Below, piece after piece: positions 13,181 to 64,000 of a stretch of DNA of 64,000 nucleotides. The notes below the pieces were generated by a model. The model was not told the DNA's origin, ran no database searches, and saw only the letters and a list, made by a program, of their open reading frames with translations. The stretch covers positions 20,336,001 to 20,400,000 of the forward strand of contig CM126231.1 in the NCBI GenBank assembly GCA_052327205.1, read 5' to 3'. The first letter of the stretch is position 1. The number at the start of each line of letters is the position of its first letter. Source of the stretch: Somniosus microcephalus (lineage: Eukaryota). The position numbers were made by a program, and so were the translations under genes.

Positions 13181-15016
13181 CACTCTCCAACCCCACCTTC
13201 CCTCTCAAACAAAATTCAAAAAGTAAAAATGTGGATAAGTTTTATCATTCACTGACAGGAAAGCAACGGCCTGGGCGTCCCAGAATTTGGAAGCAATGTT
13301 TCTGCATGTCATGACGTTGCCATGAGGTTCCAGAGGTTTACGAGTCAATAATTGTTCAAATTGTTGGTGCATCTTAAACGTGCTGTTGGGTTGTGTGAAA
13401 TTATGAGTTCAACTCCTCGGAGATTGGGATTTTTCCGTATTAATGAAGGTCTGATAATTAAAATACTGAAGCATTAGGGGCTCTACTTTGATTCCATTTG
13501 CTGACTGGCTTTCACGCTGGAGGCTTTCTTAAGGGATAGTCTGGGCCGGGTTTTGGAAAACTGGGCATTTAAAAGCCCTTTTGTGGAAGGCTCAAGCACC
13601 CTGATTAGTTGACTGAGGAAGCAGCATTGATGAGGTGCAACTTTGTTCTTTCAAAAGATGTCATCTGAAGGTGGGTGGGGGGAAGTAAAGAGCGAGCGAG
13701 ATATGCATTGAAAGATCTGGGGTATATTCTGAAAAGGAGCTGGGCCCATAGTGCAGGGGTAGGACCAGAACTTTTTAAAAATGAAAGAAAAAGCAAGGTA
13801 AATTAGGAAATGGTTGTGTGCTGCCACGCTTGGGTTAGAACATCTTAAATTGTAGGAAGAAGCAAAGTGTGAGGGGAATGAGCGCCACAGTTTGAGATTT
13901 TTGAAAAGGAACCAAGTGAGAGTAAAAGACTGTGTGATCAGTCTTTTCATTCAACATGACCAGAAAGAGGATATTGGACAATTTGTACCCTGCATTGCTC
14001 CTTTAATCGTTGAATTATTCTCCGCACTTGTGAGACAAAGCACTGGGGATTTGGAAGGACTGAACTGCAGTGTCTTCAGGTCCTGTTCTGTTGTGCCACT
14101 GGTCTATGGAATCATTTTGGTAATAGTAGTGGATCTCCCGCAAGACTGCAGATGGGCAGTCGGGAATCTGAAGCGTGTTTGTGATGCTTCGCAACTAACC
14201 TGGCCTGTCCAGTGCTTCCTGTCGGAATCCAAGTAATCGAAGGTGTTCTTAAATTCATATCAATTAGAGGTTAGGAACAGGAGTAGGCCGTTCAGCCCCT
14301 CCAGCCTGTTCTGGTTTGTTTTGAATGTTAGACTAATACTTAATTTTTTTTTTAAAGATTGTTTTGGAGCTGTAACAAGTGTGACTATGTTGGATGTAAG
14401 GCTGCTAAATACATTAGCTTCTTCCTGTTGGCCACTGTGGTTTTTTGTTAGCGGGGCAACTTTGCAGCTTGTGGATGTCATACATCTCCAGATCTCAGTT
14501 GCAATCAAAAAGCATAGTGTGGATCTCGAAGGCCTAATGTCACTTTCAACAGGGAAGAAATGCATCCCCTACAACTGCAGCTTGGCACTTGGGAAATGCA
14601 CCACCTATGGTTGGCAGATTTGAGCACGCAACTCCATTGTAAAGCACACCAGTGACTGCTTAATTCCCCGGGTGCTTTGGTGGGCTCACCATACAGTCTT
14701 CTGTATTTTACGTGCAATGTCTGGAGTTGGGGTAACACAACAAATCATTATGGTCCCTTGGGGAAACGTCCCAAAGTCAACGTTCTGCAGCTGTGGGCAA
14801 TCACTCATAAACTAAATACAGTTTTTCTCAAGATTTGAAGGTCTGCAAGTGGTAAATGAACAAAAACTTGCTTTCTTTCCTTCTGGTTTCTTTGCTGCTC
14901 TGCTTTTGTAACTGGAGGTTTGTGGTGACTGGACGGCCCAGTGGGTCAGCTGGCTGTTCTTTCACCTTTGGGACCATGGCTTGGATTCATTCCAGGTGGG
15001 AGAGGGGCAAGAATTT

Positions 15017-15051: not shown

Positions 15052-15452
15052 GATTGGGCTTATACTCTCTGGAGTTTAGAAGAATGAGAGGGGATCTCAT
15101 TGAAACTTATAAAATTCTAACAGGACTAGATGCAGGAAGGATGTTCCTGATGGCTGGGGAGTCCAGAACCAGGGGTCACAGTCTAAGGATAAAGGGTAAG
15201 CCATTTAGGACAGAAATGAGGAGGAATTTCTTCACCCAGAGAGTGGTGAACCTGTGGAATTCTCTACCACAGAAGGCAGTTGAGACCAATTCATTAAATA
15301 TATTCAAGAAGGAGTTAGATATATTTCTTGAGGCTAAAGGGATATGGGGAGAAAGCAGGGACAGGGTACTGGATGATCAGCCATGATCTCATTGAATGGC
15401 GGAGCAGGCTCGAGGGGCCGAATGGCCTCCTCCCTCTCCTATCTTCTATGTT
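15047..15452 (+). mobile_element. CR1 3' fragment (cttctatgtt-tail subfamily)
   Basis: RLGLYSLEFRRMRGDLIETYK..WNSLP; tail atcttctatgtt. Confidence 0.9.
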
Positions 15453-21000: not shown

Positions 21001-22505
21001 TGGACACGGTAGCATCGTGGTTCTGTTACTGGACTAGTAATCCGTGAGACTTGAGTTCAACTCCCACAGCAGCTGGGGAATTTAATTTCAGCTAGTTAAA
21101 TAAATCTGGAATGAAAAGCTTGTATCAGTAATAGTGACCATGTAATTGCAGGATTGTAAAAACCCATCTGTCTTACTAATGTCCTTTAGGGAAGGAAATC
21201 TGCCATCCTTACCTGTTCTGGCCTATATGTGAGCCCAGGCCCACAGCAACTCTTAACTGCCCTCTGAAATTGCCTAGCAAGACACTCCTGGCTGAGTGGC
21301 AGGAGGCAGAGGGTGATGGTCGAAGGTTGCTTTTGTGACTGGAAGCCTGTGTCCAGTGGGGTACCTCAGGGATCGGTGCTGGGTCCCTTGTTGTTTGTGA
21401 TCTACATAAATGATTTGGATGAGAATGTAAAAGGTATGATCAGTAAGTTCGCAGATGACACGAAAATTGGTGGGATGGTAAATTGCGAGGAGGAAAGCCT
21501 CAGGCTACAGGACGATATAAACGGGTTGGTCAGATGGGCGGAAAAGTGGCAAATGGAATTTAACCCTGAAAAGTGCGAGGTGATGCATTTTGGACGGACA
21601 AATAAGGCAAGGGAATACACAATGAGTGGTAGGACCCTAGGAAGTACAGAAGGTCAGAGGGACCTTGGTGTACATGTACATAGATCCCTGAAGGCAGCGG
21701 AGCAGGTAGATAAGGTGGTTAAAAAGGCATATGGGATACTTGCCTTCATTAGCCGAGGCATAGAATATAAGAGCAGGGCGGTTATGATGGAGCTGTACAA
21801 AACGCTGGTGAGGCCACAGCTGGAGTACTGTGTGCAGTTCTGGTCGCCTCACTATAGGAAGGATGTGATTGCTTTGGAGAGGGTGCAGAGAAGATTCACC
21901 AGGATGTTACCTGGGATGGAGCGCCTCAGCTATGAAGAGAGGCTGGACAGGCTGGGGTTGTTTTCCTTGGAGCAAAGAAGGCTGAGGGGGGACCTGATTG
22001 AGGTGTACAAAATGATGAGGGGCATAGATAGGGTAGATAAAGAGGAACTTTTCCCCTTAGTAGGGGGGTCAATAACAAGGGGGCATAGATTCAGGGTAAG
22101 GGGCAGGAGATTTAGAGGGGATTTGAGGAGGAACTTCTTCACCCAGAGGGTGGTTGGAATGTGGAACTCAATGCCTGAAAGGGTGGTAGAGGCAGGAACC
22201 CTCACAACATTCAAGAAGCATTTGGATGAGCACTTGAAATGCCATTGCATACAAGGCTATGGACCAAATGCTGGAAAATGGGATTAGACTGGACAGGGAT
22301 GGATGGGCGGTGCAGACACGATGGGCCGAAGGGCCTCTTTCTGTGCTGTAAAACTCTGACTCTATGACACTCAGTTGTACTAAACCACTACAGACTACAA
22401 AGTCACTGTGTACCTTCACGCTCACCGCCACCTTCTCAAGGGCAATTAGGGATGGGCAATAAATCACCGTGCCAGCGATGCCCACATCCCATGAATGGAA
22501 AAAAA
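21001..22505 (+). mobile_element. tRNA-derived SINE (Meta-domain-like), split by a CR1 insertion at 21288-22365
   Basis: B-box gagttcaac; core actaatgtcctttagggaaggaaatctgcc; resumes at 22373 with tail cttctcaagggcaattagggatgggcaataaat. Confidence 0.75.
21288..22365 (+). mobile_element. Young 5'-truncated CR1 with uninterrupted RT C-terminal ORF
   Basis: ORF 21313-22287 ([26 protein letters not shown]); 7-bp TSD GACACTC at 21281-21287 and 22366-22372. Confidence 0.95.
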
Positions 22506-23054: not shown

Positions 23055-24291
23055 AACATAGAAGATAGGAGCAGGAGTAGGCCATTTGGCCCCTCGAGCC
23101 TGCTCTGCCATTCAATGAGATCATGGCTGATCATCCAAACTCAGTACCCTGTTCCTGCCTTCTCCCCATATCCCTTGATCCCTTTAACCTTAAGAAATAT
23201 ATCCAACTCCATCTTGAACATATTCAATGAATTGGCCTCAACTGCCTTCTGTGGTAGAGAATTCCACAGGTTCACCACTCTCTGGGTGAAGAAATTCCTC
23301 CTCATCTCAGTTCTAAATGGCTTACCCCTTATCCTTAGACTGTGACCCCTGGTTCTGGACTCCCCCGCCATCGGGAACATCCTTCCTGCATCTGGTCTGT
23401 CTAGTCCTGTTAGAATTTTATAAGTTTCAATGAGATCCCCTCTCATTCTTCTAAACTCCAGCGAGTATAAGCCCAATCGACCCAATCTCTCCTCATACGT
23501 CATTCCTGCCATCCCAGGTATCAGTCTGGTGAATCTTCGCTGCACTCCCTCCATGGCAAGAACATTCTTCCTCAGATAAGGCGACCAAAACTGCACACAA
23601 TACTCAAGATGTGGTCTCACCAAGGCCCTGTACAACTGCAGCAAGACATCCTTGTTCCTGTACTCGAACCCTCTCGCTATGAAGGCCAACATACCATTTG
23701 CCTTCTTAACCGCCTGCTGCACCTGCATGCTTACCTTCAGCGACTGGTGCACAAGGACACCCAGGTCTCGTTGCACTTCCCCTTCTCCCAATCTAATGCC
23801 GCTCAGATAATAATCTGCCTTCCTGTTTTTGCCACCAAAGTGGCTAACCTCGAATTTATCCACATTATACTGCATCTGCCAATCATTTGCCCAATCACCC
23901 AACCTGTCCAAATCATACTGGAGTTTCTCGGCATTCTCCTCACAGCACACACGCCCACCCAGCTTTGTGTCGTCTGCAAACTTGGAGATATTACATCTAG
24001 TTCACTCGTCTATAGATCATTTATATATATTGTGAATAGCTGGGATCCTAGGACTGATCCCTGCGGTACCCCACTAGTCACTGCCTGCCACTCGGAAAAA
24101 GACCCGTTTATTCCAACTCTTTGCTTCCTATCTGCCAACCAGTTCTCTATCCAAGACAGTACCTTGCCCCCAATCCCATGTACCTTAACTTTACACGCTA
24201 ATCTCTTATGTGGGACCTTATTGAAAGCCTTCTGAAAGTCCAAATACACCACACCCACTGGTTCTCCCTTATCTATTCTACCAGGTACATC
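23055..24291 (-). mobile_element. CR1 3' fragment
   Basis: ORFs 24010-24258 ([17 protein letters not shown]) and 23141-23950 (EYCVQFWSPYL, WNSLP). Confidence 0.95.
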
Positions 24292-24349
24292 CTATTCGAA
24301 GAACAGCAGGTGAGTTCTCCCCGGTGTCCTGGCCGCTATTCATCACACA

Positions 24350-25399: not shown

Positions 25400-26245
25400 A
25401 GAAACATAGAAGATAGGAGCAGGAGTAGGCCATTCGGCCCCTCGAGCCTGCTCCGCCATTCAATGAGATCATGGCTGATCATCCAAATTCTGTACCCTGT
25501 TCCTGCCTTCTCTCCATATCCCTTGATACCTTTAGCCTTAAGAAATATATCCAACTCCTTCTTGAATATATTTAATGAATTGGCCTCTACTGCCTTCTTT
25601 GGTAGAGAATTCCACAGGTTCACCACTTTCTGGGTGAAGAAATTCCTCCTCATCTCTGTCCTAAATGGCTTACCCCTTATCCTTAGACTGTGACCCCTGG
25701 TTCTGGACTCCCCGACCATCGGGAACATCCTTCCAGCATCTAGTCTGTCTAATCCTGTTAGAGTTTTATAAGTTTCGATAAGATCCCCTCTCATTCTTCT
25801 AAACTCCAGCGAGTACAAGCCCAATCGACCCAATCTCTCCTCATACTTCATTCCTGCCATCCCAGGTATCAGCCTGGTAAATCTTCGCTGCACTCCTTCC
25901 ATGGCAAGAACATCCTTCCTCAGATAAGGCGACCAAAACTGCACACAATACTCCAGATGTGGTCTCACCAAGGCCCTGTACAACTGCAGCAAGACATCCT
26001 TGTTCCTGAACTCAAACCCTCTCGCTACGAAGGCCAACATACCATTTGCCTTCTTAACCGCCTGCTGCACCTGCATGCTTACTTTCAGCGACTGGTGCAC
26101 AAGGACACCCAGGTCTCGTAGCACTTCCCCTTCTCCCAATCTATTGCCAGTCAGATAATAATCTGCCTTCCTGTTTTTGACACCAAAGTGGATAACCTCG
26201 CATTTATCCACGTTATATTGCTTCTGCCATGCTTCTGCCCAATCA
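25400..26245 (-). mobile_element. CR1 3' fragment
   Basis: ORF 25300-26364 core (NVDKCEVIHFG, RDLGVLV, WNSLP); tail cttctatgtttct. Confidence 0.95.
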
Positions 26246-30392: not shown

Positions 30393-30689
30393 AATGCCCA
30401 CAAATCATTTGAGGTTTGCTCATATTATGACATCCTTATGAACTGTGCTGCTGCCCGAAACTCTCAGCCATCCCACTGTTGCTCAGAGGTAAAAATCTGA
30501 AACCAAAGCAGGAGATGGTGAAAATGCTCAGCAGGCTAAAGCAGGATCTGAAAGAGACAGGCACGTTAGTGATTCATGTGTAACCCTGATGAAGGGTTCT
30601 GAGAAACAGTTTCACTTAGATCGTTCACTGAAGCTGTTTATATAGGTTGTGCACGCAGAAAATAAGAGCGCATTTATTGAACAGCTGCA

Positions 30690-31303
30690 GTAATAAGAGC
30701 AGGTCAGAGGCCGGGTATTCTGCAACGAGTGCCTCAACTCCTGACTCCCCAAAGCCTTTCCACCATCTACAAGGCACAAGTCAGGAGTGTGATGAATACT
30801 CTCCACTTGCCTGGATGAGTGCAGCTCCAACAACACTCAAGAAGCTCGACACCATCCAGGACAAAGCAGCCCACTTGATTGGCACCCCATCCACCACCTT
30901 AAATATTCACTCCCTCCACCACCGGCGTACCGTGGCTGCAGTGTGTACCATCTACAAGATGCACTGCAGCAACTCGCCAAGGCTTCTTCGGCAGCACCTC
31001 CCAAACCCGCGACCTGTTCCACCTAGAAGGACAAGGGCAGCAGGCGCATGGGAACACCACCACCTCCAAGTTCCCCTCCAAGTCACACACCATCCTGACT
31101 TAGAAGTATATCGCCGTTCCTTCATTGTCGCTGGGTCAAAATCCTGGAACTCTCCCTAACAGCACTGTGGGAGCACCTTCACCACACGGACTGCAGCGGT
31201 TCAAGAAGGCGGCTCGCCACCACCTTCTCAAGGGCAACTAGGGATGGGCAATAAATGCTGGCCTTGCCAGCAATGCCCACATTCCACGAACGAATGAAAA
31301 AAA
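30690..31303 (+). mobile_element. CR1-group LINE (second family) 3' fragment
   Basis: EYSPLAWMSAAPTTLKKLDTIQDKA, SLHHRR, WNS; tail cttctcaagggcaactagggatgggcaataaatgctggcc. Confidence 0.85.
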
Positions 31304-32538: not shown

Positions 32539-34547
32539 AATGGGTATGAAGCAACAGGGCAGTGTTAGCGTACATTTAAACGCATGTCCTCTTACTGACA
32601 TTTTGTGTAAATTAGCAGTATAGGAGAGCTAGTCCTGCTAGACCATTGATCCCTTTGCGTGTGCCATTCTCCACTGTTCAGTACCAATATATACCAACTG
32701 ATAATGAGATCTACACCGTTAAAAGTTGCTTCTTCAGCCACTGTTGGTGGGCCATATATTTGCTTATCTTGTATAAAAGTACAACTGAAATATTAAGGAA
32801 CAGCATTTCTTTCTTCTAAGTACTTGTCCAGCCTCAAACTGTACTGTGTAGTTCAGACCTCGGGGTCAGTCACTCACTGGGCTCACTCGGGGACTGCTGC
32901 CGGCTGGTTTGAGCTTGTGGTTGGGACCAAGGCCGCAGAACGCAGACTTAAAAAAGGCTGCAGAATGGTCAACCTCGGGGGGGGGGGGGGGAGAGGGTTT
33001 TGCGTGGGATGGTTTCAGCCCGTTCCCGGAGAGAAAAATGCTTATTTTGGCAAGTCGTCAGGTTGCCGCACTGGCCTGCTGTTTTACTTAAGAATATTTG
33101 CATGAAGGGTTTATGACCAGGGGGAGGAAAGAGAAGAGAATATCCAGGGTGTTCTGCGCCATTTAACGAAATCAAACAATTCAGTGGAATGGTGGGTCAA
33201 TCTGCCACATATTCAATCATCGTTTGAAATAAAGTAGTATTACTTAAAACATTCCAGTACTTGATACAAGTCAACCGGTAGAAAAAAAGAATTGGACTTA
33301 ATCAAGACAACTAGACTTGTAGACTGTGCAAATTGGTGCTGTTGTAGAATAGAAAGTGCCCAGCAGTGTATGGAAGATAAGGCAAGAAACCTGTGGAGCA
33401 ATTTACCTTTTTATAATTATTTCCCCTCCAAAAAGTACAGGTTGGCTCATCTATAACTGTTAACTGCAATTAAAAACTAAAATGGGTGTCGAGCCTGAGT
33501 GTTGTGTTTGGATTCTGAATTTATCATAGAACGGTTACAGTACAGAAGGAGGCCATTCAGCCCGTTGAGCCCGTGCCAGCTCTCTGCGAGAGCACTTCAG
33601 CTAGTCCCAATCTCCCGCCCTTTCTCCGTAGCCCTGCAAATCTTTTTCTTCAGGTACTTATCCAATTCCCTTTTGAAAGCCACGATTGAATCTGCCTCCA
33701 CCACCCTTTCAGGCAGTGCATTCCAGATCATAACCACTCGCTGTGTAAAAAAGTTTTCCCTCATGTCACCTTTAGTTCTACTGCCAATCACCTTAAATCT
33801 GTGTCCTCTGGTTCTCGACCCTTCCGCCAACGGGAACAGTTTCTCTCTATCTACTCTGTCTCGACCCCTCTTGATTTTGAACACTTCTATGAAATCTCCT
33901 CTCAACCTTCTCTGCTCTAAGGAGAACAACCCCAGCTTCTCCAGTCTATCCATGTAACTGAAGTCCCTCATCCCTGGAACCATTCTTGTAAATCTTTTCT
34001 GCACCCTTTCTAAGGCCTTCACATCCTTCCTAAAGTGTGGTGCCCAGAATTGGACACAATACTCCAGTGTTTTATAAAGGTTCAACATAACTTCCTTGCT
34101 TTTGTACTCTATGCCTCTATTTATGAAACCCAGGATCCCGTATGCTTTTTTAACCGCTTTCTCAACCTGCCCTGCCACCTTCAACAATTTGTGCACAAAT
34201 ACCCCCGGGTCTCTCTGTTCATGCACCCCCTTTAGGATTGTACCCTTTAGTTTATATTGCCTCGCCTCATTCTTCCTACCAAAATGTATCACTTCGCACT
34301 TTTCCGTGTTAAATTTCATCTGCCAAGTGTCCGCCCATTTCACCAGCCTGTCTATGTCTCCTTGAAGTCTATCACTATCCTCCTCACTGTTCACTATACT
34401 TCCAAGTTTTGAGTCATCTGCAAATTTTAAAATTGTGCCCTGTACACCCAAGTCTAAGTCATTAATATATATCAAGAAAAGCAATGGTCCTAGTACCGAC
34501 CCCTAGGGAACCCCACTGTCTACCTTCCTCCAGTCCGATAAACAGCC

Positions 34548-34771: not shown

Positions 34772-35171
34772 TTGATTCAAACCTACCTGCAATTCTGTAG
34801 AAGGCGGCCGATTCCACCAGTGCGGGTGTCGACCATCCGGAGAGGACTTGAACATCGCAGAGGAGGCTGTGGAGAGCTGGGCTTGGTTCCCCAGTCGAGA
34901 CAATCCAGCACAGCGGGCTGGCAGCAGGTGCGGCGCAGACCCTTCCCGGACGACAGCGGCTGGAGCCGACCGACGGCACACAAAAAGGCCAAGCAGTGTC
35001 GACGGGGTAAGAGAGACGGTGAAGCGCACAGGGCGCAGCCGGGGTTGAAGACCGAGCGGCGTCAACGAGAGAAGGGAAAACGCGCAGAGCGCAGCCGGGG
35101 TTTCAAGGGCTGAGCAGTGTCCGCGGGGGAAGCCATTTTGAGCCAGCGGAGAAGAAGGGAGAGCGCGGGAG

Positions 35172-38100
35172 ATGCCATTTTTAGCCAGTCTAACCACACC
35201 CAAGAGTGGCAGTGTCACAGCATTCGACAATGAAGTCGAAGATTGGGCAACATATATAGAACATGTAGAAGTGTACTGCAAGGCGAATGAAGTGCCAGAT
35301 GCCAGGAAAGCACTGGTATTGTTGAATTCCATGGGTGCAAAAACGTATGGCTTACTGCGAAACCTAATAACCCCAGAGAAGCCAGTGGAAAAGGATTTTG
35401 AAAGCATAGTGGCAATCCTACAGGACCACTTAAACCCCACACCGCTGCTGATAGCCGAAAGATTTAAGTTTCACAAAAGGAACCAGCATAAAGATGAAAG
35501 TAATGCTGAGTATTTAACGGAACTGCGCAAACTATCGAAACACTGCCAGTTTGGAACGGGACTAGCAGATACTTTAAGGGACAAGTTTGTGTGTGGGCTT
35601 CAAAGTGAAGGAACCCAGAAACGGCTTCTATCAGAAAAGGATCTTACGCTGGACAAGGCTTTCAGCATGGCAGTATCACACGAAGCAGCCGCACGGGGCG
35701 CTGCAGAGATACAACGGAGACCGCAAGAATATGGCACAAATGAAATGTCATATGGAGCAGTGAAGTGTTATCGCTGCGGCAAAACAACACACGACCACAA
35801 GGACTGTTGGTTCAAGGACCAAGTGTGCAGACAGTGTGGAAAAGTAGGACACAGAGCAAGTGTCTGCAGGTCGGGAAAGAAAACCAGCAGCAAGAAATCT
35901 CCACAGGAGAAGTACAAAAAGGTACATAAGGTGACGGAGAGTAGTTCAGACGAACAGAAAAGTGATACAGACTCCAGAAGCAAGGAGCTGGGTTGTCTGA
36001 AACTACATCATGTAATCAAAATGGAGGATCACCAAACTATCTGGGTCACGCTCAAGATAGACGGAGTCCAAGCGAAAATGGAATTGGACACAGGATCAGC
36101 CCTAACAGTCATAAACCAAAGGGACTACAAGCGGCCATTCTCACATATACCCTTGAGAGATACAGAGATTGTCTTGAAGACGTACACGGGGCAAAAAGTC
36201 TACCCCAAAGGAAAAATAAGGGTGAACGTGATATACAACGGCAAGGAAACACCAAAAATGGACCTATATGTATTGCCAGATGGAGGACCGCCACTACTAG
36301 GGCGTGAATGGATCCGGAAGATACAGCTAGATTGGCATTCCGTACAAGCACTGACTGTAGATGCTAAAAAGGAGGACGACGTCACACCGGGACCACTGTC
36401 AAAAATGCTAACTGACGCACAAGAAGTGTTCCAGGAGGGACTCGGAACACTAAAAGGCATAACAGCAACGATCAAAATAGAGGAAAATGCAAGCCCAAAG
36501 TTTTTTTTAAGGCCAGACCGGTACCTTATGCGATCTGCTCAGCCGTCAAAGCAGAGCTGGAAGGTTTGGAACGTTCAGGAGTGCTATCCAAAGTGGGCTG
36601 GAGCGAGTGGGCTACACCCATCGTTCCTGTAATGAAGAGGTCGTTGAGTAATACGCCTGGGGAACCAAAGAAGGTTCGCATCTGTGGGGACTTTAAGGTG
36701 ACAGTGAACCCAGTCCTTCACACTGTACAATATCCGCTTCCGCGGATTGAAGATATTTTCGCCTCGCTATCTGGAGGGAAACGCTTCACTAAGATTGATC
36801 TGGCCCAGGCGTACCTGCAAATGGAGGTGGAAGAAGCCTCGAAACAGTACTTCACGATCAACACTCAAAGGTCTCTACCAATACAACCGGCTGGTGTTCG
36901 GGGTAGCATCAGCTCCGGCTATTTGGCAAAGGGCAATGGATCAAGTCCTGCAAGGGATTCCAGGGACCCAGTGTTATTTGGACGACATCCTGGTTACGGG
37001 CGAAAATGACAGTGATCACCTCGCCAACCTGGAGCAGGTGCTCACTAGGTTGAAGGATTATGGGCTCCGAGCTAATCGCCACAAATGCGAGTTTTTCCAG
37101 AAGCAGATCTCGTATTGTGGCCATGTTATTGATGAAGAGGGGTTACATAAGTCCCCTGAAAAGATTGAGGCAGTAGTCAAGGCTCCAGCACCGGAAAATG
37201 TGTCACAACTGAGGTCGTTCCTCGGGTTGGTGAACTACTACCATAAGTTCTTGCCGAATTTGTCCACAGTTCTACACCCACTGAACACCCTGCTGCAAAC
37301 GGGGGTTCCATGGAAGTGGAATGACGAATGTAAACAAGCTTTCCAGAAGTGCAAAGAATTGATCACATCAAAAGAGGTGTTGGCTCATTTCAACCCAGCA
37401 CTACCAATTCGGCTGGCGTGTGATGCATCACCCTATGGCATTGGAGCGGTGCTGTCGCACAAATTCCCGGATGGCTCGGAGAGGCCAGTAGCCTTTGCGT
37501 CTCGGTCACTAACCTCAGCCGAGCGTAACTATGCCCAGATTGACAGGGAGGCCCTCAGCCTAGTGTGGGGAGTGAAAAAGTTCAACCACTATCTGCACGG
37601 GCAGAAGTTCACCTTGCTGACTGACCACCAACCACTTGTCTCCATCTTTAACCCAAAGAAGGGCGTTCCGGTGATGACTGCGCAACGGCTACAAAGATGG
37701 TCCCTTTTTCTAGGGGTGCACCAATATGATATCGAGTATAAGGGTACGAAACAGCATGGAAATGCTGATGGGCTATCACGCCTGCCACTACCTACTGCAG
37801 AGGAAGCACCAGCAGTGGATCCTGTCGAAATATTTCATTCGACTATAATTGAATGCTTGCCAGTAACTAACGCTGGTATAGAGAAGGAGACCCGAAATGA
37901 CCCAACACTGTCTCGGGTATATGACTTGAAGGTGAAGGGATGGCCAGCACATGGCGACTCACTGTTGCCAGCATTCTCATCCAGAAGAGAACAGCTGTCA
38001 GTATGCCAGGGGACCTTGATGTGTGGATCCCGAGTGGTAATTCCACCGAAGTTAAGGGAGAGAGTGCTCAATGAGCTTCACGAAGGCCATCTGGGAGGGG

Positions 38101-39143
38101 TGAAAATGAAAAGCCTTGCTAGGGCTTATGTGTGGTGGCCGGGGATCGATCAGCAAATCGAGGACCTGACAAAGAGTTGCTCAGGATGCCAGAAGGTCCA
38201 AAATGCACCACCACATGCCCCTCTACACCCATGGGAGTGGCCCTCATCTCCATGGCAACGGGTGCATATTGATTTTGCTGGTCCATTCATGGACTCAATG
38301 TTTCTAATAGCTGTGGATACGCACTCGAAATGGCCTGAGGTGATCAAAATGTCCTCCACCACCACGGAGAAAACTATTGCAGTCCTACGGACCATCTTTG
38401 CCAGGAACGGCTTGCCAGAGCAGATTTGCTCTGATAACGGACCACAGTTTGTGTCCGAAGAGTTTCGAAGATTTATGAAAAGGAATGGGGTAAGGCATTA
38501 CACCTCCACTCCGTATCATCCAGCCACCAATGGATTGGCTGAGAGGTTTGTATAAACCTTTAAAAAAGCAGTAAGGGCCATGTGCGATGATGACATTCCA
38601 CTGCAGCATAAGGTGGACAATTTCCTGTTAGCCTACAGAAATGCGACACATACAGTTACCAACCAGACCCCGGCCATGATGTTCTTTAACCGAAGGCTGA
38701 GATCTCGTCTGGATTTGCTCAGACCAAATGTGCGAAGAAATGTTGAGGATAAGCAATTCCAGCACATCAATGAGAAGATGACAAGGAGCTTCAATGTAGG
38801 ACAACCAGTCTTGGCCCGCGGCTACCGAACAGAGAAATGGCAACCCGGAACGATATGCACACGGCAGGGGCCACTAATGTACACAGTGGATGTCGGGGAG
38901 AACATTGTGAGACGCCATGTCGACCAGATCCTAGCGTCACAGGAACGAGTCAACCCCATGTCTCGCGTACCTGGAGATGAACCTGACATACCGGTAGCAT
39001 CTACCCCAGAAACAGTAGCAGCGGAAACTGATGAACTAACCAATGACAGGGGGCCAGAATCGCCTCCGCACGAAGAACAAGACACTCAGGAAAGGCGCTA
39101 TCCAGAAAGGATCAGGAAGCTGCCCCAAAGACTGAATCTATAA
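35172..39143 (+). pseudogene. gag-pol polyprotein with 2 frameshifts and 1 stop
   Basis: Two CCHC knuckles (CYRCGKTTHDHKDC, CRQCGKVGHRASVC), protease LDTGS, RT YLDD, RNase H CDAS, integrase HEGH..CSGC, HIDFAG, SDNG, NGLAERFV; lesions near 36505, near 36865 and TAA at 38553. Confidence 0.93.
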
Positions 39144-39215
39144 ATGGACTATTTCAGTTAAATGTGCATGTTAAAGTGTTAACTGTTATTTGAATGTTGT
39201 GGGTACTGTTAATCT

Positions 39216-39228
39216 AAAAGGGGAGGAA
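39216..39228 (+). promoter_or_regulatory. Polypurine tract
   Basis: AAAAGGGGAGGAA one nt before the 3' LTR. Confidence 0.9.
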
Positions 39229-39229
39229 T

Positions 39230-39442
39230 TGTAGTGTATGTACCTTTAAGGGGAGAACTACTTTTTACAGCTCCTGTATACTGTAGTACCGGCAGTGACC
39301 ACACCTGTATATAAACCCAGAGTAGGGATCTGTACTTTAGTTTTAGAGTAACCTGCATCCAGTAAACACCTGTTAATTGTTCCTCTGCAGTCTCTGTCGA
39401 TTTATTGAAGAACACCATACATCAACATTCACGGATTCAACA
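39230..39442 (+). repeat. 3' LTR
   Basis: 211/213 identical to 34548-34760 by manual comparison. Confidence 0.97.
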
Positions 39443-41064: not shown

Positions 41065-41880
41065 AATTTGGATGATGTGCAGGCTTGGGCTGTTAAGTGG
41101 CAGGTAACATTCGCGTCACACAAGTGCCAGGCAATGACTATCTCCAACAAGCGAGAGTCTAACCACCGCCCCTTGACATTCAACGGCATTACCATCGCCG
41201 AATCCCCCACCATCAACATCCTGGGGGTCATCATTGACCAGAAACTTAACTGGACCAGCCACATAAATACTGTGGCAACAAGAGCAGGTCAGAGGCAAGG
41301 TATTCTGTGGCGAATGTCTCACCTCCTGACTCCCCAAAGCCTTTCCATCATCAACAAGGCACAGGTAAGGAGTGTGGTGGAATACTCTCCACTTGCCTGG
41401 ATGAGTGCAGCTCCAACAACACTCAAGAAGCTCGACACCATCCAGGACAAAGCAGCCGCTTGATTGGCACCACATCCACCACCTCAAACATTCACTCCCT
41501 CCACCACCGGTGTACCGTGGCTGCCATGTGTACCATCTACAAGATGCACTGCAGCAACTCGCCAAGGCTTCTTCGGCAGCACCTCCCAAACCCGCAACCT
41601 CTTCCACCTAGAAGGACAAGGGCAGCAGGAGCATGGGAACACCACCACCTCCAAGTTCCCCTCCAAGTCACACACCATCCTGACTTAGAAGTATATCGTC
41701 GATCCTTCATCGTCGCTGGGTCAGAATCCTGGAACTCCCTCCCTAACAGCACTGCGGGAGTACCTTCACCACACGGACTGCAGCGGTTCAAGAAGGCGGC
41801 TCACCACCACCTTCTCAAGGGCAATTAGGGATGGGCAATAAATGCTGGCCTTGCCACATCCCATAAACGATTTAAAAAAA
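41065..41880 (+). mobile_element. CR1-group LINE (second family) 3' fragment
   Basis: WQVTFASHKCQAM, NILGVIID, KAQVRSVVEYSPLAW, WNSLP; same tail as 30690-31303. Confidence 0.88.
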
Positions 41881-43187: not shown

Positions 43188-43553
43188 AACATAGAAACAT
43201 AGAAGATAGGAGCAGGAGTAGGCCATTCGGCCCCTCGAGCCTGTTCCGCCATTTAATGAGATCATGGCTGATCATCCAAACTCAGTACCCTGCCTTCTCC
43301 CCATATCCCTTGATCCCTTTAGCCTTAAGAAATATATCTAACTCCTTCTTGAATATATTTAATGAATTGGCCTCAACTGCCCTGTGTGGCAGAGAATTCC
43401 ACAGGTTCACCACTCTCTGGGTGAAGAAATTCCTCCTCATCTCAGTCCTAAATGGCTTACCCCTTATCCTTAGACTGTGACCCCTGGTTCTGGACTCCCC
43501 CCGCCATCGGGAACATCCTTCCTGCATCTAGTCTGTCTAGTCCTGTTAGAATT
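43188..43553 (-). mobile_element. CR1 3' fragment
   Basis: RTRGHSLRIRG..WNSLP; tail cttctatgtttctatgtt. Confidence 0.9.
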
Positions 43554-49464: not shown

Positions 49465-50642
49465 GCCATGGCTCAGTTGGGAGCACTCTCGGCTTTGAGT
49501 CAGAAGGTTGTGGGTTCACGTTCCACGCCAGAGAGTTGAGCACAAAATCTAGGCTGACACTCCAAAGAAATGCTGCACCGACAGAGGTGCCTTCTTTCGG
49601 ATCAGACATCTGCCCTCTCGGATGAACGTAAAAGATCCCACGGCACTACTTCGAAGAAGAGCAGGGGAGATCTCCTCAGTGCCTGGGCCAATATTTAACC
49701 CTCAACCAAAATCACTAAGACAGATTACCTGGTCATTATCACATTGTTGTTTGTGGGACCTTGCTGTGCATATTTGGCTGCCGCATTTCCCTACTTCTTC
49801 TTCTTAGGCAGTCCCTTGGAACCGAGGATGACTTGTTTCCACATTAAAAATGAGTTTTCAGGTGACTGATGAGTCCAGTGCGGGACCTACAGTCTCTGTC
49901 ACAGGAGCGGCAGACGGTGGTTGAAGGGGCGGGTGGGTGGGGTGCTTGGGCTGATGTGCGCTCCTTGCGCTTGGCTTCCGGCGAAGAGACTCGAGGTATT
50001 CGGTGCCTTCCCGGATGCTTCTCCTCCACTTTGTACGGTCTTGGGCCAGGGATTCCCAGGTGTCGGTGGGGATGTTGCACTTTTTCAAGGCATCTTTGAG
50101 GGTGTCCTTGAAGCGTTTCCTCTGCCCACCTGGGGCTCTCTCGCCATGTCGGTGCTCCGAGTAGAGTGCTTGTTTTGGGAGTCTCGTATCGGGCATGCGA
50201 ACAATGTGACCCGTCCATCGGAGCTGATTGAGCGTGGTCAAAGCTTCAATGCTGGGGATGTTGGCCTGAGCAAGAACACTGACATTGGTGTGCCTATCCT
50301 GCCAATGGATTTGCAGGATCTTGCGGAGGCACTGTTGGTGGTACCTCTTCAGTGCTTTGAGGTGCATGCTGTACATGGTCCATGTCTCTGAGGCATACAG
50401 GAGGGCGGGTATCACTGCTGCTCTGTAGACCATGAGCTTGGTGCCGGGTTTGAGGTCCTGGTCTTCAAACACTCTCTTCCTCAGGCGACTGAAGGCTGCA
50501 CTGGCACACTGAAGGCGGTGTTGGTGTTTTCTCTACATTACAACAATGACTGCACTTCAAAAAGTACTTCATTGGCTGCAAAGCGCTTTGGAATGTCTGG
50601 AGCTCATGAAAGGTGCTATATAAATGCAAGTGTTTCTTTCTT
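49465..50642 (+). mobile_element. DeuSINE split by an RTE insertion
   Basis: Head 49465-49794 and tail 50528-50642 are collinear with 48275-48725. Confidence 0.85.
49795..50527 (-). mobile_element. RTE-clade LINE 3' fragment
   Basis: ORF 49858-50472 (TKLMVYRAAVIPALLYASETWT, LRWTGHIVRM, GGQRKRFKDTLK), C-terminal CxxC..HxxxH remnant, (AAG)n tail; TSD TTTCCCTAC/TTTCTCTAC. Confidence 0.88.
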
Positions 50643-55374: not shown

Positions 55375-55995
55375 ATAGAATCTTACGGCACAGAAAGAGA
55401 CCATTCGGCCCATCGTGCCTGTGCCGGCTCTTTGAAAGAGCTCTCCAATTAGTCCCACTCCCCTGCTCTTTCCCCAGAGCCCTGCAAATTTTTCCTTCAC
55501 AAGTATTTATCCATTTTGAAAGTCACTATTGAATCTGCTTCCACCATCCTTTCAGGCAGTGAATTCCAGATCATAACTCGTTGCGTAAAAAAAACCTCAT
55601 CTCCCCCTCTGGTTCTTTTGCAGATTGCCTTAAAATCTGTGTCCTCTGGTTACCGACCCTCCTGCCAGTGGAAACAGAGAAAATAAGGAGAAACTATCAA
55701 AACCACTGTCATGAATCTTATCATGACTCATGAAGTAACACTGGGCGGCCAGATGGTGGCGCCGTCCAAGGAGTATAAATACTCGGGCATGGGCTCAGCT
55801 TGCTCAGGATGTTTCTGTAACCAGGAACTAGTGATGTAACTAGAATCTCATGTTGTGAAACAGTTGATTAAAGCCTTGTTTTATAATCAAACCAAGGGCT
55901 CAGTAGTCTTTTTACATCAACCACTTACAATTTTGAACGCCCCTATTAAATCTCCCCTTAATCTTCTCTGCTCTAAGAACAGGCTCAGCTTCTCT
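55375..55995 (-). mobile_element. CR1 3' fragment interrupted by a solo LTR
   Basis: Similar to 33523-33950. Confidence 0.8.
55707..55919 (+). mobile_element. Solo LTR
   Basis: TGTC...CATCA termini, TATAAA, ATTAAA, 5-bp TSD ACCAC. Confidence 0.88.
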
Positions 55996-56187
55996 AGTCG
56001 CTGCTCCCTTGGTGAAATGCAGTCTGCACACAAACAGCTCCTCTGATAGTCGCTCCCTGACCAGTCTCTGGGGTTGAGGAGGGGCGGGGCGGGGGCAGTG
56101 GTTGTGGGAAGTTATTGCGACTGGTTCAGTCTCCGGACACGGTGCGTGACGCACCGCGGATTAGTATTGCAGCAACTCATCATCAGT

Positions 56188-56745
56188 AGAAACATAGAAG
56201 ATAGGAGCAGGAGTAGGCCATTCGGCCCCTCAAGCCTGCTCCGCCATTCAATGCGATCATGGCTGATCATCCAAATTCAGTACCCTGTCCCTGCCTTCTC
56301 CCCATATCCCTTGATCCCTTTAGCCTTAAGAAATATATCTAACTCCTTCTTGAATATATTTAATGAATTGGCCTCTACTGCCTTCTGTGGTAGAGAATTC
56401 CACAGGTTCACCACTCTCTGGGTGAAGAAATTCCTCCTCATCTCAGTCCTAAATGGCTTACCCCTTATCTTTAGACTGTGACCCCTGGTTCTGGACTCCC
56501 CCGCCATCGGGAACATCCTTCCTGCATCTAGTCTGTCTAGTCCTGTTAGAATTTTATAAGTTTCAATGAGATCTCCTCTCATTTTTCTAAACTCTAGCGA
56601 ATATAAGCCTAATCGACCCAATCTCTCCTCATACGTCATTCCTGCCATCCCAGGTATCAGCCTGGTGAATCTTCGCTGCACTCCCTCCATGGCAAGAACA
56701 TCCTTCCTCAGATAAAGGCGACCAAAACTGCACACAATACTCAAG
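56188..56745 (-). mobile_element. CR1 3' fragment
   Basis: ORF 56277-56810 core nearly identical to the 23141-23600 region. Confidence 0.93.
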
Positions 56746-57145
56746 TAACCTGCCTCACCAGGGTCTGAACCCTGCTGATGTTCTCGACCAGTGGGTGAAC
56801 AAACTGACACTTGGGCACTTCTGCTTCACCTTGATGGGACGTATGAGCAACAAGAGCATCACTGTGAATTGGCCGTCAAATGGGAATTCGTGCTGTGATG
56901 ATGTTTCCTGATCTCCCATTCTGCTTAAGCACAAGTCCTAAGATTCATGCGGCCCAAATAAATTAATAAAAAAGTCCACTTGATAAATGGGAAGCCGATC
57001 AATATGTATCCTAGACCTTGTGCTCTATCACTGCTCACTGTTCAGTACACATTGCCATTTGATGTGTTTTATGCACCATCTGCTGTTTGAATCAGTCATT
57101 TTTCCAGGTGAAGCCTTTGGAACGGTCCGACAAGCAAGATCCTTT

Positions 57146-58799: not shown

Positions 58800-59760
58800 A
58801 GACAACAGGAAGGGGCTTACCAGCATGAATGTAATAAAAGGCAGAAACATGCTAAAATGATATTCAGAAGGGCAAAGAGGAACCAATTAAAAGAAAGCAC
58901 AAGATAAAACACAAGTTGAAATATCTTTTTAGAACTGTAACAGTAAGAGATGAAAACATTAAAAGATGCAAACAGGCTTGAAACCAAGGATGAACACATA
59001 ATAATTAATATTCTGACTGATAGCTCCAGGAGTTCACCAAGTAAGAGGAGCGCAACATACCCTCCCTAAACCAAGATAAATTTATCAAAATCAATGACTT
59101 TGATACAAGTGAGATGGAAGTGCTGGATAAGCTCAAAGCACTCACAACAAATAAATCCCCAGGGATAATTACTACTTATCCCAGAGTACTGACAGAGTCT
59201 ATCATTTTAAAGGAGTCACTAGACAATGGGGAGATATCAGTAAAGAATAAACTCACACTTATATAGTGTCTTTCACGACTTCAGAAAATCCCCAAATGCT
59301 TCACAATGAATTACTTCTTAAGTATAATCATAGAATCATAGCGCCGGCCAACAAAGAGCTATCCAGCCTAATCCCACTTCCCAGCTCTTGGTCCGTAGCC
59401 CTGCAGGTTACAGCATCCCAAGTGCACATCCAAGTACTTTTTAAATGCAGTTAGGGTTCCTGCCTCTACCACCCTTTCAGGCAGTGAGTTCCAGACCCCC
59501 ACTGCCCTCTGGGTGAAGAAGTTTCCCCTCAAATCCCCTCTAAACCGTCCCACAATTACTTTAAATCTGTGCCCCCTTTTTTTGACCCCCCTGCTAAGGG
59601 AAATAGGTCCTTTCTATCCACTCTATCTATGCCCCTCATAATTTTATACACCTCAATAAGGTCTCCCCTAATCATTGTTGTAATGTAGGGAAAGTAGATT
59701 AGAAACAGGCCAATGCGGTGCCCATATTCAAAAAGGGAGATAAAACAACTTGAGGACTAA
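58800..59760 (+). mobile_element. Old CR1 ORF2 relic with nested SINE and CR1 fragments
   Basis: KLKALTTNKSPG, YPRVL and ANAVPIFKKGDK readable in pieces. Confidence 0.5.
59330..59670 (-). mobile_element. CR1 3' fragment
   Basis: FRGDLRGNFFTQR..WNSLPERVVEAG. Confidence 0.85.
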
Positions 59761-60002
59761 CTCAAAGGGAATGGCGGAATAGGATGTCCAAATGTAACTA
59801 GAGCCCTTAGTGCACCTGCCTGGAGGGTTACTTTAGTCACGTTGCGGGCTTTTACTGGCACAAATATCTTATCCCCAAATTGAGACACTGCAGTTGCTGC
59901 AAAACAAAACGATTGCAGAAAAGGGCATTGATTGTTGCCATGGGTGGAATACACTTTGTTGGTAGTAACACAATACTTTGCTCTCTCTAAATAGGCCGCA
60001 TT

Positions 60003-60367
60003 AGAATCATGCCCCTCATGTCTGTGCCAGCCAAAAAAGAGCTCTCCGGCCTAATCCCACTTCCCAGCTCTTGGTCCGTCACCCTGTCACTTCAAGTGCA
60101 TATCCAAGTACTTTCTAAATGTGCTGAGGGTTTCTGCTTCGACCACCCTTTCAGGCAGTGAGTTCCAGACCCCCACCACCCTCTGGGTGAAAAAATGTCT
60201 CTTCAACTCCCCTCTAATCCTTCTACCAATTACTTTAAATCTATGCCCCCTGGTTATTGACCTCTCTGCGAAGGGAAATAATAGGTCCTTGCTGCCCACT
60301 CTATCTAGGCCCCTCATAATTTTATACACCTCAATTAAATCTCCCCTCAGCCTCCTCTGTTCTAAAG
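60003..60367 (-). mobile_element. CR1 3' fragment
   Basis: YKIMRGLDRV..TRGHRFKV..WNSLP. Confidence 0.85.
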
Positions 60368-60564
60368 TTGTCCTGCAATTGGCGACTTAGTGAACTCAAA
60401 GCACTTCACACCGACTCTACCCTTGGACTCTGAATGCGTGCCAAAAGGTGTACACAAGATCGAAAGGGAACTGGGAATACTTAATCCTGAGCACTATTAG
60501 CTTACACTACATTTGCAGGACACTGTGACAAAGGTGGATCCAAGTAAAAAAAGGAGGCCGAGAT

Positions 60565-62441
60565 TGTTAGATCCGTGTGTTAATGGAGACACGGAATGCA
60601 GGAGTTGATTTAACAAGTGTTTACTGAACAAAGTCTGGAGGTGAACTAACTACACAAGACGCTATACAGGCTTATATACCCGAGTGGTCACTACTGGTAC
60701 TACAGTATACAGGGGCTTCAAAAACATAGTTCCTCTTAAAGGTACATACACTACAATTCCTCCCCCTTTAGATAAATAGTACATAACATTTTAAGTAATC
60801 ATTAAATAACATTTTTACAAGAACAATAATATACACATTTGCTGAAGTTAATCAATTACAAATTCAGTCTCTCTGGAGGCTTCCTGACTCGGTCCGGATA
60901 ACGCCTCGGTGGTGTAGTAGGTTCTTTTGGCAAGGTCGATTCGGCTTCAATGCCAGTGTCGGGTTCATCTGGTTCCAGTATCACCGGATCGGAGGTAGAT
61001 ACTATGGGTATCTCTGCTTCATCACTAGGCGTATAGAGTTGTGGTGTAGGTTGTCCTTTTTCGGATGACTCTATGATCTGGTCAGCACGGCGCCTTATTA
61101 TGCTTTCTCTAATGTCCACGGTATACATCAGCGGTCCTAGTTGTGTGCAAATAGTTCCAGGCTGCCATTTCTCGGTACGGTAGTCCCGGGCCAAAACTGG
61201 TTGACCTATCTGGAAGGTTCTAGTTGGCCTTTCATTCATGCTTTGAAATTGCCGGTTCTCTACGTCCCTTCTGACGTTTGGCTTGACCAAATCCAGCCGG
61301 CATCTTAGGCTTCTATTGAAAAACATCATGGCGGGGGTTTGGTTTGTAACTACATGTGTTGCATTCCTGTACGCAAACAAGAAGTTATCTACCTTATGTT
61401 GTAGATTTATGTCTTCATTACCCATGGCCTTTATGGCCTTCTTGAAGGTCTGGACAAACCTTTCAGCCAACCCATTGGTGGCGGGATGGTATGGGGCGGA
61501 CGTGTAGTGCTTAACCCCATTGTTTTTTAAGAACTTCCTGAATTCTTCGGATACAAATTGCGGTCCATTATCAGAACAGATCTGTTCAGGCAGCCCATTC
61601 TGGTGAATATGGTCCTTAATACTGTGATGGTTTTTTCCGTGGTGGTGGAGGACATCTTTATTACCTCCGGCAACTTGGAGTGTGCATCCATCGCGATTAA
61701 GAACATTGAGTCCATAAATGGACCAGCAAAGTCGATATGTACCCTTTGCCATGGAGATGAGGGCCACTCCCACGGATGTAGAGGGGCTTGTGGTGGGGCG
61801 TTTTGGACCTTCTGGCATCCTAGACAGCTCTTGGTCATTTCTTCGATGTCTCCATCGATACCTGGCCACCACACAAACGCTCTGGCTAAGTTCTTCATTT
61901 TCACTCCACCCAGATGCCCCTCGTGAAGCTCCTTTAGCACTCTATCCTTGAGTTTGGCTGGAATCACCACTCTGGATCCACACATCAAGGTTCCTCGGCA
62001 CACTGACAGCTGTTCTCTTCTTTGCGAGAATCATGGCAACAGTGGTTCGCCATGTGCTGGCCATCCCTTCACCGTTAAATCGTAGACTCGTGAGAGAGTC
62101 GGGTCATTTCGCGTTTCCTTTTCAATGGTAGAATTTGTCACCGGTAGACATTCCACTATGGTCGAGTGGAACATCTCCACTGGGTCCACTGTAGGCGCCT
62201 CTTCCACCGTTGGCAACGGTAGGCGCGATAACCCGTCAGCATTCCCATGCTGTTTTGTTCCTTTGTATTCTATGTCATATTGGTGTGCCCCTAGGAAAAG
62301 GGACCACCTCTGTAGCCTTTGCGCTGTCATAATGGGAACGCCCTTTTTAGGGTTGAATATGGAGATGAGGGGTTGATGGTCAGTCAACAAGGTAAATTTT
62401 TGTCCGTGTAGGTAATGGTTGAATTTCTTCACCCCCCACAC
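60565..62441 (-). mobile_element. Second Mag-like Gypsy element (RNase H end, integrase, PPT, 3' LTR 60565-60755), interrupted by CR1
   Basis: VWGVKKFNHYLHGQKF, HEGHLG, HIDFAGP, SDNG, NGLAERFV in frameshifted ORFs; PPT AAAGGGGGAGGAA; LTR begins with the same tgtagtgtatgtacctttaag as element 1. Confidence 0.92.
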
Positions 62442-63175
62442 CGCAGGGAAGGGCTGCACAGGAAGATAGGAAATGGGTGAGCACCAGGCGGAGCAATAGA
62501 AGCAGGCAGGTAGTGCAGGAGACCCCTGTGACCATTCCCCTCTCAAACAGGTATGCCGCTTTGGATACTGTTGAGGGGGATGACTCACCAGGGGAAGGCA
62601 GCAGCAGCCAACTTCCTGGCACTGGGGGTGCTCCTGCTGCCCAGGAAGGGGGGAAAAAGAGTGGGAGAGCAATAGTGGTAGGGGATTCTATAGTAAGGGG
62701 AACAGATAGGCGTTTCTGTGGCCGTAGACGTGAATCCAGGATGGTTTGTTGCCTCCCTGGTGCCAGGGTCAAGGATATCACTGAGCGGCTGCAGGGCATT
62801 CTGGACGGGGAGGGTGAACAGCCAGAGGTCGTGGTCCACATTGGTACCAACGACATAGGTAAAAAGAGGGATGAGGTCCTGCAGCAAGAATTTAGGGAGC
62901 TAGGTGAAGGATTAAAGAGCAGGACCTCAAAGGTTGTAATCTCTGGATTACTCCCGGTGCCACGTGCTAGTGAGTATAGGAATGGGAAGATAGAACAGAT
63001 GAATGCGTGGCTAAAGGGATGGTGCAGGGGGGAGGGCTTTAGTTTCCTGGATCACTGGGTCTGCTTCTGGGAAAGGTGGGACTTGTACAATTCGGACGGT
63101 TTACACCTGAACCAGAGGGGAACCAATATCCTTGCGGGTAGGTTTGCTAGCACTGCTGGGGGGGGTTTAAACTAA
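62441..63175 (+). CDS. CR1 ORF1p SGNH/GDSL esterase domain (N-terminus missing)
   Basis: LSNRYAAL, IVVGDSIVRG, PGA, HIGTND, DGLHLN: all four SGNH blocks present. Confidence 0.88.
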   Translation, partial: PQGRAAQEDRKWVSTRRSNRSRQVVQETPVTIPLSNRYAALDTVEGDDSPGEGSSSQLPGTGGAPAAQEGGKKSGRAIVVGDSIVRGTDRRFCGRRRESRMVCCLPGARVKDITERLQGILDGEGEQPEVVVHIGTNDIGKKRDEVLQQEFRELGEGLKSRTSKVVISGLLPVPRASEYRNGKIEQMNAWLKGWCRGEGFSFLDHWVCFWERWDLYNSDGLHLNQRGTNILAGRFASTAGGGLN

Positions 63176-64000
63176 CTTGGCAGGGGGATGGGGTACAGAG
63201 TGGAGCTATAGCAGGGGGTGATTTACAGCCAAACACAGAGAAAAAAACAAGGCAGAGCAAATATGTGAAGGCAAAAGGGAATATGGCAGGGCTGGAAGGC
63301 ATTTATTTTAATGCAAGGAGTCTTGCAAATAAGGTGGATGAACTGAAGTTGTTGTTGAACACATGGGAGTATGATATTGTTGCTATCACGGAGACATGGT
63401 TGAGGGAGGGTCAGGACTGGCAGCTCAATATTCCGGGGTATAGAATCTTCAGGCGAGACAGAGGGGGGTGTAAAAGGGGAGGGGGTGTTGCAATATTAAT
63501 TAAGGAGTCAATTACTGCTGTAAGGAGGGATGATATATTAGCAGGTTCCTCTAATGAGGCCATATGGGTAGAACTTAAAAACAAAAAGGGGGCAAGCACT
63601 TTGCTGGGAGTGTACTATAGGCCCCCAAACAGCCAGGGGGAGATAGAGGAACAGATATGTAGGCAAATCTCAGAAAAGTGCGAAAATAATAGGGTAATAA
63701 TAGTGGGGGATTTCAACTTCCCCAATATTAATTGGGATAGTCAGAGTGTGAAAGGTTTAGAGGGTGCAGAATTCTTAAAGTGCATCCAGGAGAGCTTTTT
63801 GAGCCAACATGTAGAAAGTCCTACAAGAGAGGGGGCGATACTGGACCTAATTCTGGGGAATGTAGCCGGGCAAGTGGTGGAAGTGTCAGTAGGAGAGCAT
63901 TTTGGCGACAGTGACCATAATTCGGTGAGATTTAAGGTGGTCATGGAAAAAGACAAAAACGGCCTGGAAATAAGGGTTCTAAATTGGGGGAAGGCCGATT
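62442..64000 (+). mobile_element. Young CR1 LINE, 5'-truncated within ORF1, extending beyond the window
   Basis: Open esterase ORF1 and open APE ORF2. Confidence 0.93.
63283..64000 (+). CDS. CR1 ORF2 apurinic-like endonuclease (partial; absent from the ORF track because it has no stop in the window)
   Basis: Manual translation: GIYFNARSL, AITETWL, RRDR..GGGVA, GVYYRPP, VGDFNFP, ILDLIL, SDH; the frame is already open from 63151. Confidence 0.9.
   Translation, partial: MAGLEGIYFNARSLANKVDELKLLLNTWEYDIVAITETWLREGQDWQLNIPGYRIFRRDRGGCKRGGGVAILIKESITAVRRDDILAGSSNEAIWVELKNKKGASTLLGVYYRPPNSQGEIEEQICRQISEKCENNRVIIVGDFNFPNINWDSQSVKGLEGAEFLKCIQESFLSQHVESPTREGAILDLILGNVAGQVVEVSVGEHFGDSDHNSVRFKVVMEKDKNGLEIRVLNWGKAD

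Follow-up and report, generated by a model that had tools for sequence, protein, structure and literature searches.

A conserved in-phase U_UUA_AAC heptamer at the ORF1/ORF2 junction of esterase-type CR1 retrotransposons suggests programmed -1 frameshifting

Elements of the CR1 group dominate among the retrotransposons of most vertebrates according to the sections of PMC13343379 covered here, and how a bicistronic LINE RNA yields ORF2 protein is called unclear in the covered part of PMC3708506. Two solutions to the same problem, the low-level production of ORF2 from such an RNA, are UAAUG coupling in SART1 and reinitiation in L1, as far as the excerpts covered here describe them, and both yield a separate ORF2 protein. 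A third is given by the Dictyostelium elements TRE5-A and TRE3-A, which need a -1 frameshift for ORF2 according to a figure legend in a review (PMC5911963, in part). These are non-LTR elements with a -1 frameshift for ORF2, as is proposed here for CR1, and the kind of mechanism is therefore already known. TRE5-A and TRE3-A differ from CR1 in lineage and in ORF1 type.

U_UUA_AAC is named as the IBV coronavirus heptamer in the covered part of PMC5009743. The IBV 1a/1b and retroviral gag-pol junctions share the heptamer, its phase, the -1 overlap and a downstream polymerase with the CR1 junction. The CR1 junction differs from viral -1 frameshift sites in its non-LTR host and in the sequence 3′ of the site, where no stem-loop was found and where a stop codon directly abuts the heptamer and is followed by a short G-rich motif. 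A short motif at a fixed 3′ distance also replaces the pseudoknot in synthetic G-quadruplex (G4) constructs and in the PRRSV nsp1beta/PCBP system, as it would at the CR1 junction, where the stimulator is a prediction only. The natural use of a G4 in frameshifting was not known as of 2016 according to the same portion of PMC5009743.

Esterase-type CR1 LINEs encode an SGNH esterase ORF1 followed by an ORF2 that starts with an APE endonuclease. They correspond to CR1 subgroup 7 with ORF1 type IVB in PMC4120745 and to canonical CR1 in PMC13343379, and the sections of these two papers covered here do not address the mode of ORF2 translation. The word 'frameshift' is absent from the main text of both and from that of the esterase structure paper (PMC3905857). 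No proposal of CR1 frameshifting was found in the literature searched, and the original CR1 papers or Repbase notes may mention the site. A canonical slip site conserved across vertebrate CR1s is absent from the literature searched.

The window analyzed is a 64,000-nt stretch of the Somniosus microcephalus genome (contig CM126231.1, 20,336,001 to 20,400,000) with an esterase-type CR1 LINE at its 3′ end, identified as such by its SGNH esterase ORF1, an ORF2 that starts with APE, and a junction match to sequences classified as CR1. The features of the junction are collected in Table 1. ORF1 matches the SGNH esterase fold of PDB 4C1B with E = 8e-30 and is 70% identical to a Pristiophorus protein in an alignment that starts at residue 73 of that protein; about 70 amino-terminal residues, including a Cys-rich region, are absent from the window copy. 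The ORF1 reading frame spans 62423..63175 and closes with the codons GGT TTA AAC TAA. The ORF2 frame (63151..63999) is -1 relative to ORF1, continues as FKLTWQGDG... with no intervening stop until it enters the APE domain (Pfam PF03372, residues 53-256) and is open at its 3′ end where the element leaves the window at 64000. The best longer homologue of ORF2 (65% identity) contains an APE domain as well as a reverse transcriptase (RT) domain, and the closest named homologues are from sharks and rays, in keeping with a cartilaginous fish as the source of the window.

Table 1. Features of the CR1 ORF1/ORF2 junction and its 5′ neighbor, in window coordinates.
Feature	Position	Strand	Remark
Gypsy-type pol fragment (RNase H, integrase)	60856..62441	-	adjoined by the CR1 5′ end
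CR1 ORF1 (SGNH esterase), 5′-truncated, ends ...GGLN*	62437..63175	+	Pfam PF13472, E 9e-15
Last stop (TAG) in the -1/ORF2 frame	63148..63150	+	confines the ORF1/ORF2 overlap to 25 nt
Second overlapping in-phase heptamer, G GGT TTA	63163..63169	+	lineage-limited
Slippery heptamer T TTA AAC (X XXY YYZ)	63166..63172	+	final two sense codons of ORF1
ORF1 stop (TAA)	63173..63175	+	immediately 3′ of the heptamer
Purine-rich linker	63176..63282	+	only the -1 frame is open
G-rich motif (GG, GGGGG, GGGG)	63179..63193	+	candidate 3′ stimulator; -1 frame reads Q-G-D-G
In-frame ATG	63283..63285	+	9 codons 5′ of the catalytic Asn motif; A at -3 and G at +4, a good context
APE endonuclease domain of ORF2	63307..63918	+	Pfam PF03372, PF14529

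The ORF1/ORF2 overlap thus holds an in-phase X XXY YYZ heptamer. From the base composition of ORF1, the chance of any X XXY YYZ sequence at one fixed in-phase position is about 1.2e-3, and the chance of T TTA AAC at one fixed position is 2.8e-5. TTTAAAC occurs 10 times in the window when both strands are counted, so the case rests on position and conservation. The open linker is weak evidence by itself because 10% of 20,000 shuffles were equally open (p ~0.10). The coordinates assigned to the heptamer, the upstream TAG and the ATG in the preliminary description of this DNA were all confirmed, as was the TAA that ends ORF1, and G GGT TTA, which it had named as an overlapping candidate, is also in phase. 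Its claim that the -1 frame opens after the TAG and runs into the endonuclease agrees with the open reading frame list and the Pfam matches.

The CR1 copy in the window is truncated at its 5′ end inside ORF1 and lies inside a Gypsy element, so the mechanism considered here concerns the parent family and not this copy, which is probably a passenger that is not itself translated. The Gypsy pol fragment is 75% identical to a Gypsy copy at 37563-39285; the Gypsy homology stops at 62441 and, judged by eye, a shark CR1 consensus matches from 62437. The CR1 truncation point is joined to Gypsy pol by a 5-nt microhomology (62437-62441). A second, longer Gypsy-type element at 35142-39143 (+) encodes gag-protease, RT, RNase H and integrase split over several ORFs and shows 75% identity to that at 60701-62441. 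About a dozen 5′-truncated 3′ ends of CR1-type ORF2 are found in the window (among them 3-1362, 12184-13192, 15063-15380, 21274-22236, 23192-24327, 25516-26241, 33648-34547, 43303-43500, 55500-56747 and 59419-60371), and of the CR1 copies in the window only that at 62437-64000 keeps the ORF1/ORF2 junction. Carboxy-terminal RT fragments of other LINE types, which resemble Rex1, RTE and Zenon/CR1-like elements, lie at 8896-9681 (-), 49858-50532 (-), 30632-31159 and 41250-41828.

Conservation of the ORF1 end was examined in 247 pooled ORF1-like proteins. The 175 that were kept have an alignment that reaches the last helix and an end at most 20 residues beyond it, and the 72 that were dropped appear to be fragments or chimeric models. 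The carboxy terminus is Leu-Asn (LN) in 113 of the 175. Species names were attached to 34 matches, of which 21 pass the filter and 18 of these 21 end in LN; sharks, rays, Callorhinchus, Acipenser, Paramormyrops and Hyla are represented among them. Because T TTA AAC is slippery only if the preceding codon ends in T, the residue before LN is informative. This position takes 13 different values, and 112 of the 113 residues can be encoded by a codon ending in T. Glu, Lys, Gln, Met and Trp, which have no such codon, account for 1/113 residues before LN compared to 50/113 and 42/113 at the next two positions. After collapse to 87 distinct endings the excluded residues make up 1/87 against a background of 23%; the nominal p value of 3e-9 overstates the T rule given the shared descent of the proteins, and the statistic is further limited by the construction of the profile (A1) from LN-ending proteins.

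Two other observations were made among the proteins collected. The shark-like CR1 proteins P0008 and P0121 are listed as proteins of Pseudomonas aeruginosa and Carnobacterium maltaromaticum on contigs of 3-4 kb and are probably host DNA contaminating bacterial assemblies. Ray gene models with RPS24, HAO2, TMEM204 and ABHD14A-like names (P0024, P0300, P0080 and P0114) contain CR1 ORF1 sequence, which is exonisation or an annotation artefact.

The nucleotide sequence at the junction was examined in the CR1-group consensuses of Supplementary Table 2 of PMC13343379, where the search covered the first 400 nt of each row. The search for TTTAAACT gave 44 matches in the table, of which 19 lie at the end of an esterase ORF1 as judged by eye; the other 25 TTTAAACT matches are in 5′ UTRs, in ORF2 or in other LINE clades. 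The elements with a heptamer junction carry the labels CalMil, ScyCan, SquAca, HypSab, PriPec, AmiCal, AldAff, LatCha, AquCat, PogVit, AllMis and CroPor. These presumably stand for a chimaera, sharks, rays, bowfin, a teleost, coelacanth, a frog, a lizard and crocodilians. The codon 5′ of the heptamer varies among the 19 junctions (GGT, GCT, GAT, TAT, CTT, TGT), as does the ORF1 stop (TAG in 11, TAA in 6, TGA in 1 and none in 1). The second heptamer, G GGT TTA, is present by eye in 3 of the 18 junctions for which the sequence 5′ of the heptamer could be read. The window junction is nearly identical by eye to those of PriPec_CR1-7 and ScyCan_CR1-1a. The AldAff_Crack-2 row of the table has a Crack label, yet starts with remnants of a CR1-type esterase ORF1 and the same junction; ORF1 is not reliably detected in vertebrate Crack elements according to the covered part of PMC13343379.

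The heptamer search selects for its own motif, and control searches were therefore run on the same 400-nt row starts. Selected synonymous spellings of Leu-Asn-stop occur 34 times, and none of the 33 inspected is located where a CR1 ORF1 terminates. For first-base variants of the heptamer the count at this position was 0/10. Anchoring on the codons of the upstream catalytic motif DGLH recovered the heptamer in all 8 rows that extend across the junction, with one further row cut short, using anchors designed from consensus rows seen beforehand. Beyond this table, the covered supplementary file of Suh 2014 (PMC4316615) gave 4 matches, all in 3′ regions of ORF2, and the junction DNA had no match in plasmid and phage collections. 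Nine loci on GTDB contigs with 24-31% identity were taken for unrelated SGNH proteins and set aside. In the first 400 nt of each row of this table, and in counts that are not phylogenetically independent, both the heptamer and the -1 phase recur at the nucleotide level at ORF1 ends across jawed vertebrates, in line with the proposal in the preliminary description.

These data bear on the idea that LN is a carboxy-terminal requirement of the protein, in which case codon choice and common descent would account for the heptamer and the G-run would merely encode Gly-Asp-Gly. L224 and N225 are indeed invariant in alignment A1, the sequences have a common origin, and in the consensus rows covered the -1-frame residues specified by the G-run are alike between sharks and crocodilians, so that peptide constraint is a rival reading of the G-run. 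A requirement for LN in the protein does not account for 0/33 synonymous spellings at the CR1 ORF1 end in those rows though the neighboring codons and the stop vary, and it gives no reason for the exclusion of Glu, Lys, Gln, Met and Trp solely at position -3. The crystallised ZfL2-1 esterase chain stops before the LN position, which indicates that the esterase fold needs no LN. Protein constraint is thus very unlikely to explain the junction, and the heptamer appears, from these sequence comparisons, to be conserved in nucleotides beyond protein need.

Other ORF1 endings may represent alternative slip sites. The distant relatives of ORF1 outside the group of named vertebrates end in QGN (9), SGN (1) or SKN (3), with tails of variable length. 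Back-translated from protein, these endings would fit the strong heptamers G GGA AAC and A AAA AAC. Of the 53 non-LN tails, 38 hold a tripeptide that fits at least one member of a set of five strong heptamers, picked after the data were seen, compared to 9.0 expected. In the ZfL2-like set, defined by a DGLHP motif, 4 of 9 tails hold a compatible tripeptide compared to 0.9 expected, and 2 of these 4 lie outside the ZfL2-like clade in the tree; this set is not a clean negative control. An esterase tree of 81 of 171 rows left after a redundancy filter, built by a quick method that cannot order events, contains one well-supported group with 30/32 LN ends, and the GN, KN and FF ends are scattered elsewhere. 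The GN and KN endings look like swapping between slip sites.

Access to ORF2 was considered next from the -1 frame and the candidate start codons. In four ORF1 homologues FKL is read at the LN position, which is the -1 frame. Two automated gene models of Hypanus sabinus are unbroken from the esterase via the linker into the APE motif and probably represent copies that carry a one-base indel. The -1 frame was read by eye in 7 of the 19 consensus junctions, all in gappy consensuses: starting at the heptamer, it reaches the APE motif without a stop in ScyCan 1a and SquAca 6c, is open to the cell cut in PriPec 7, and is stopped in AllMis 1b, AllMis 6a, CalMil 1b and PogVit 2. The ATG at 63283, whose conservation had been put forward as a check, is not conserved: among 52 other ORF2-like proteins, 9 lack the motif, and an equivalent Met is present in 1 of the 43 that have it. 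Many ORF2 predictions have an upstream Met at 1 to 96 residues, which is often the start chosen by the gene caller. The recurrence of heptamer and phase at CR1 ORF1 ends and the lack of conservation of this ATG support the retrovirus-like frameshifting that was initially suggested.

The alternative that these start codons address is termination followed by reinitiation, either SART1-like at a TAATG or by an L1-like, AUG-independent restart, with the heptamer, stop and G-run acting as a conserved termination or ribosome-retention signal in place of a slip site. In the excerpts covered, SART1 is described as using reinitiation and L1 is favored to do so, the heptamer is always abutted by a stop, and the ATG of the window copy has a good context. 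A TAATG stop-start overlap is found in 3 of the 19 consensus junctions (ScyCan_CR1-1a, SquAca_CR1-17a and SquAca_CR1-6c), but it is lacking in the other 16 and in the window copy, which reads TAA CTT. With no stop-start overlap in the window copy and no conserved AUG upstream of APE, the junction differs from those of SART1 and L1. Reinitiation also does not predict the exact X XXY YYZ phase, the restriction of the preceding codon to those ending in T (112/113) or the GN/KN swaps, and as the general explanation it is improbable. The good-context ATG and the three TAATG junctions indicate that reinitiation may coexist in some subfamilies, and the three elements with TAATG might, judging from their junctions, use both frameshifting and reinitiation.

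A frame change on the RNA, by polymerase slippage or splicing, and not on the ribosome was also weighed. The window copy has a G8 run (63158-63165) that could promote slippage and a branch-point-like CTAAC followed by AG (about 63172-63183). The distance from this branch point to the AG is too short for splicing. The G8 run is not conserved, as the preceding codons are GCT, GAT, TAT and others in the consensus rows covered, and the AG is absent from the crocodilian junctions shown there. The RNA-level reading was rejected since its features are not conserved, and it is the least probable of the explanations considered.

The sequence 3′ of the heptamer was analyzed for a stimulator, a structure that lies 5-9 nt downstream in a canonical -1 frameshift cassette. 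RNA downstream of the heptamer folds no better than shuffled sequence (z = +2.3, +1.0 and +1.25 for Watson-Crick hairpins without pseudoknots), and a classical stem-loop was therefore not found. A search of Rfam returned no frameshift element and a single chance-level match. The G-tracts that the preliminary description placed about 12 nt downstream are present, with starts at 63179 (GG), 63183 (GGGGG), 63190 (GGGG), 63202 (GG) and 63214 (GGGGG), but they begin closer to the heptamer, the first GG after a 6-nt spacer and the first GGGGG after a 10-nt spacer. A two-tier G-quadruplex is predicted from 63179, 6 nt from the heptamer, with -6.5 kcal/mol compared to -0.6 kcal/mol without the quadruplex (63173-63200), a prediction made without a shuffle control. 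By eye, a run of at least 4 G follows a 6-10-nt spacer in 12 of the 19 consensus junctions in the rows covered. When C-rich tracts over 1.6 kb were considered as pairing partners for the G-motif, several of similar energy emerged, a comparison that had no control and is uninformative.

Programmed -1 frameshifting that gives an ORF1-ORF2 fusion, to which we assign a probability of about 0.78, explains the exact phase, the T rule, the invariant codons, the apparent swaps and the unconserved AUG. The sequences show the anatomy of the junction, its conservation in nucleotides and the lack of a conserved AUG; from them we infer the slippage, the product and the stimulator. Reinitiation, protein-only constraint and an RNA-level change each leave most of this evidence unexplained. 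On the RNA of an active esterase-type CR1 LINE, the majority of ribosomes would terminate ORF1 at the stop right after U UUA AAC. A minority would slip one base back, with tRNA-Leu and tRNA-Asn re-pairing on UUU AAA, and would proceed through the unstructured linker into APE and RT. The pause would probably be caused by the G-rich motif that lies 6-10 nt further 3′, as a quadruplex or bound by protein, by the adjacent stop codon, or by both. The product would be a low-abundance ORF1-ORF2 fusion in a fixed ratio to the ORF1 protein, like Gag-Pol. It is a tentative and rather doubtful extension that frameshifting in vertebrate CR1s is driven by the short G-tract in place of a pseudoknot and that the esterase-APE-RT fusion co-assembles with the ORF1 protein as Gag-Pol does with Gag.

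If programmed frameshifting is correct, the annotated start codons of CR1 ORF2 would often be wrong, and the CR1 junction offers a candidate natural G-tract frameshift stimulator. CR1 elements would then make a Gag-Pol-like fusion, contrary to the argument, in the portion of the published literature covered here, that ORF1 functions have to be produced apart from ORF2.
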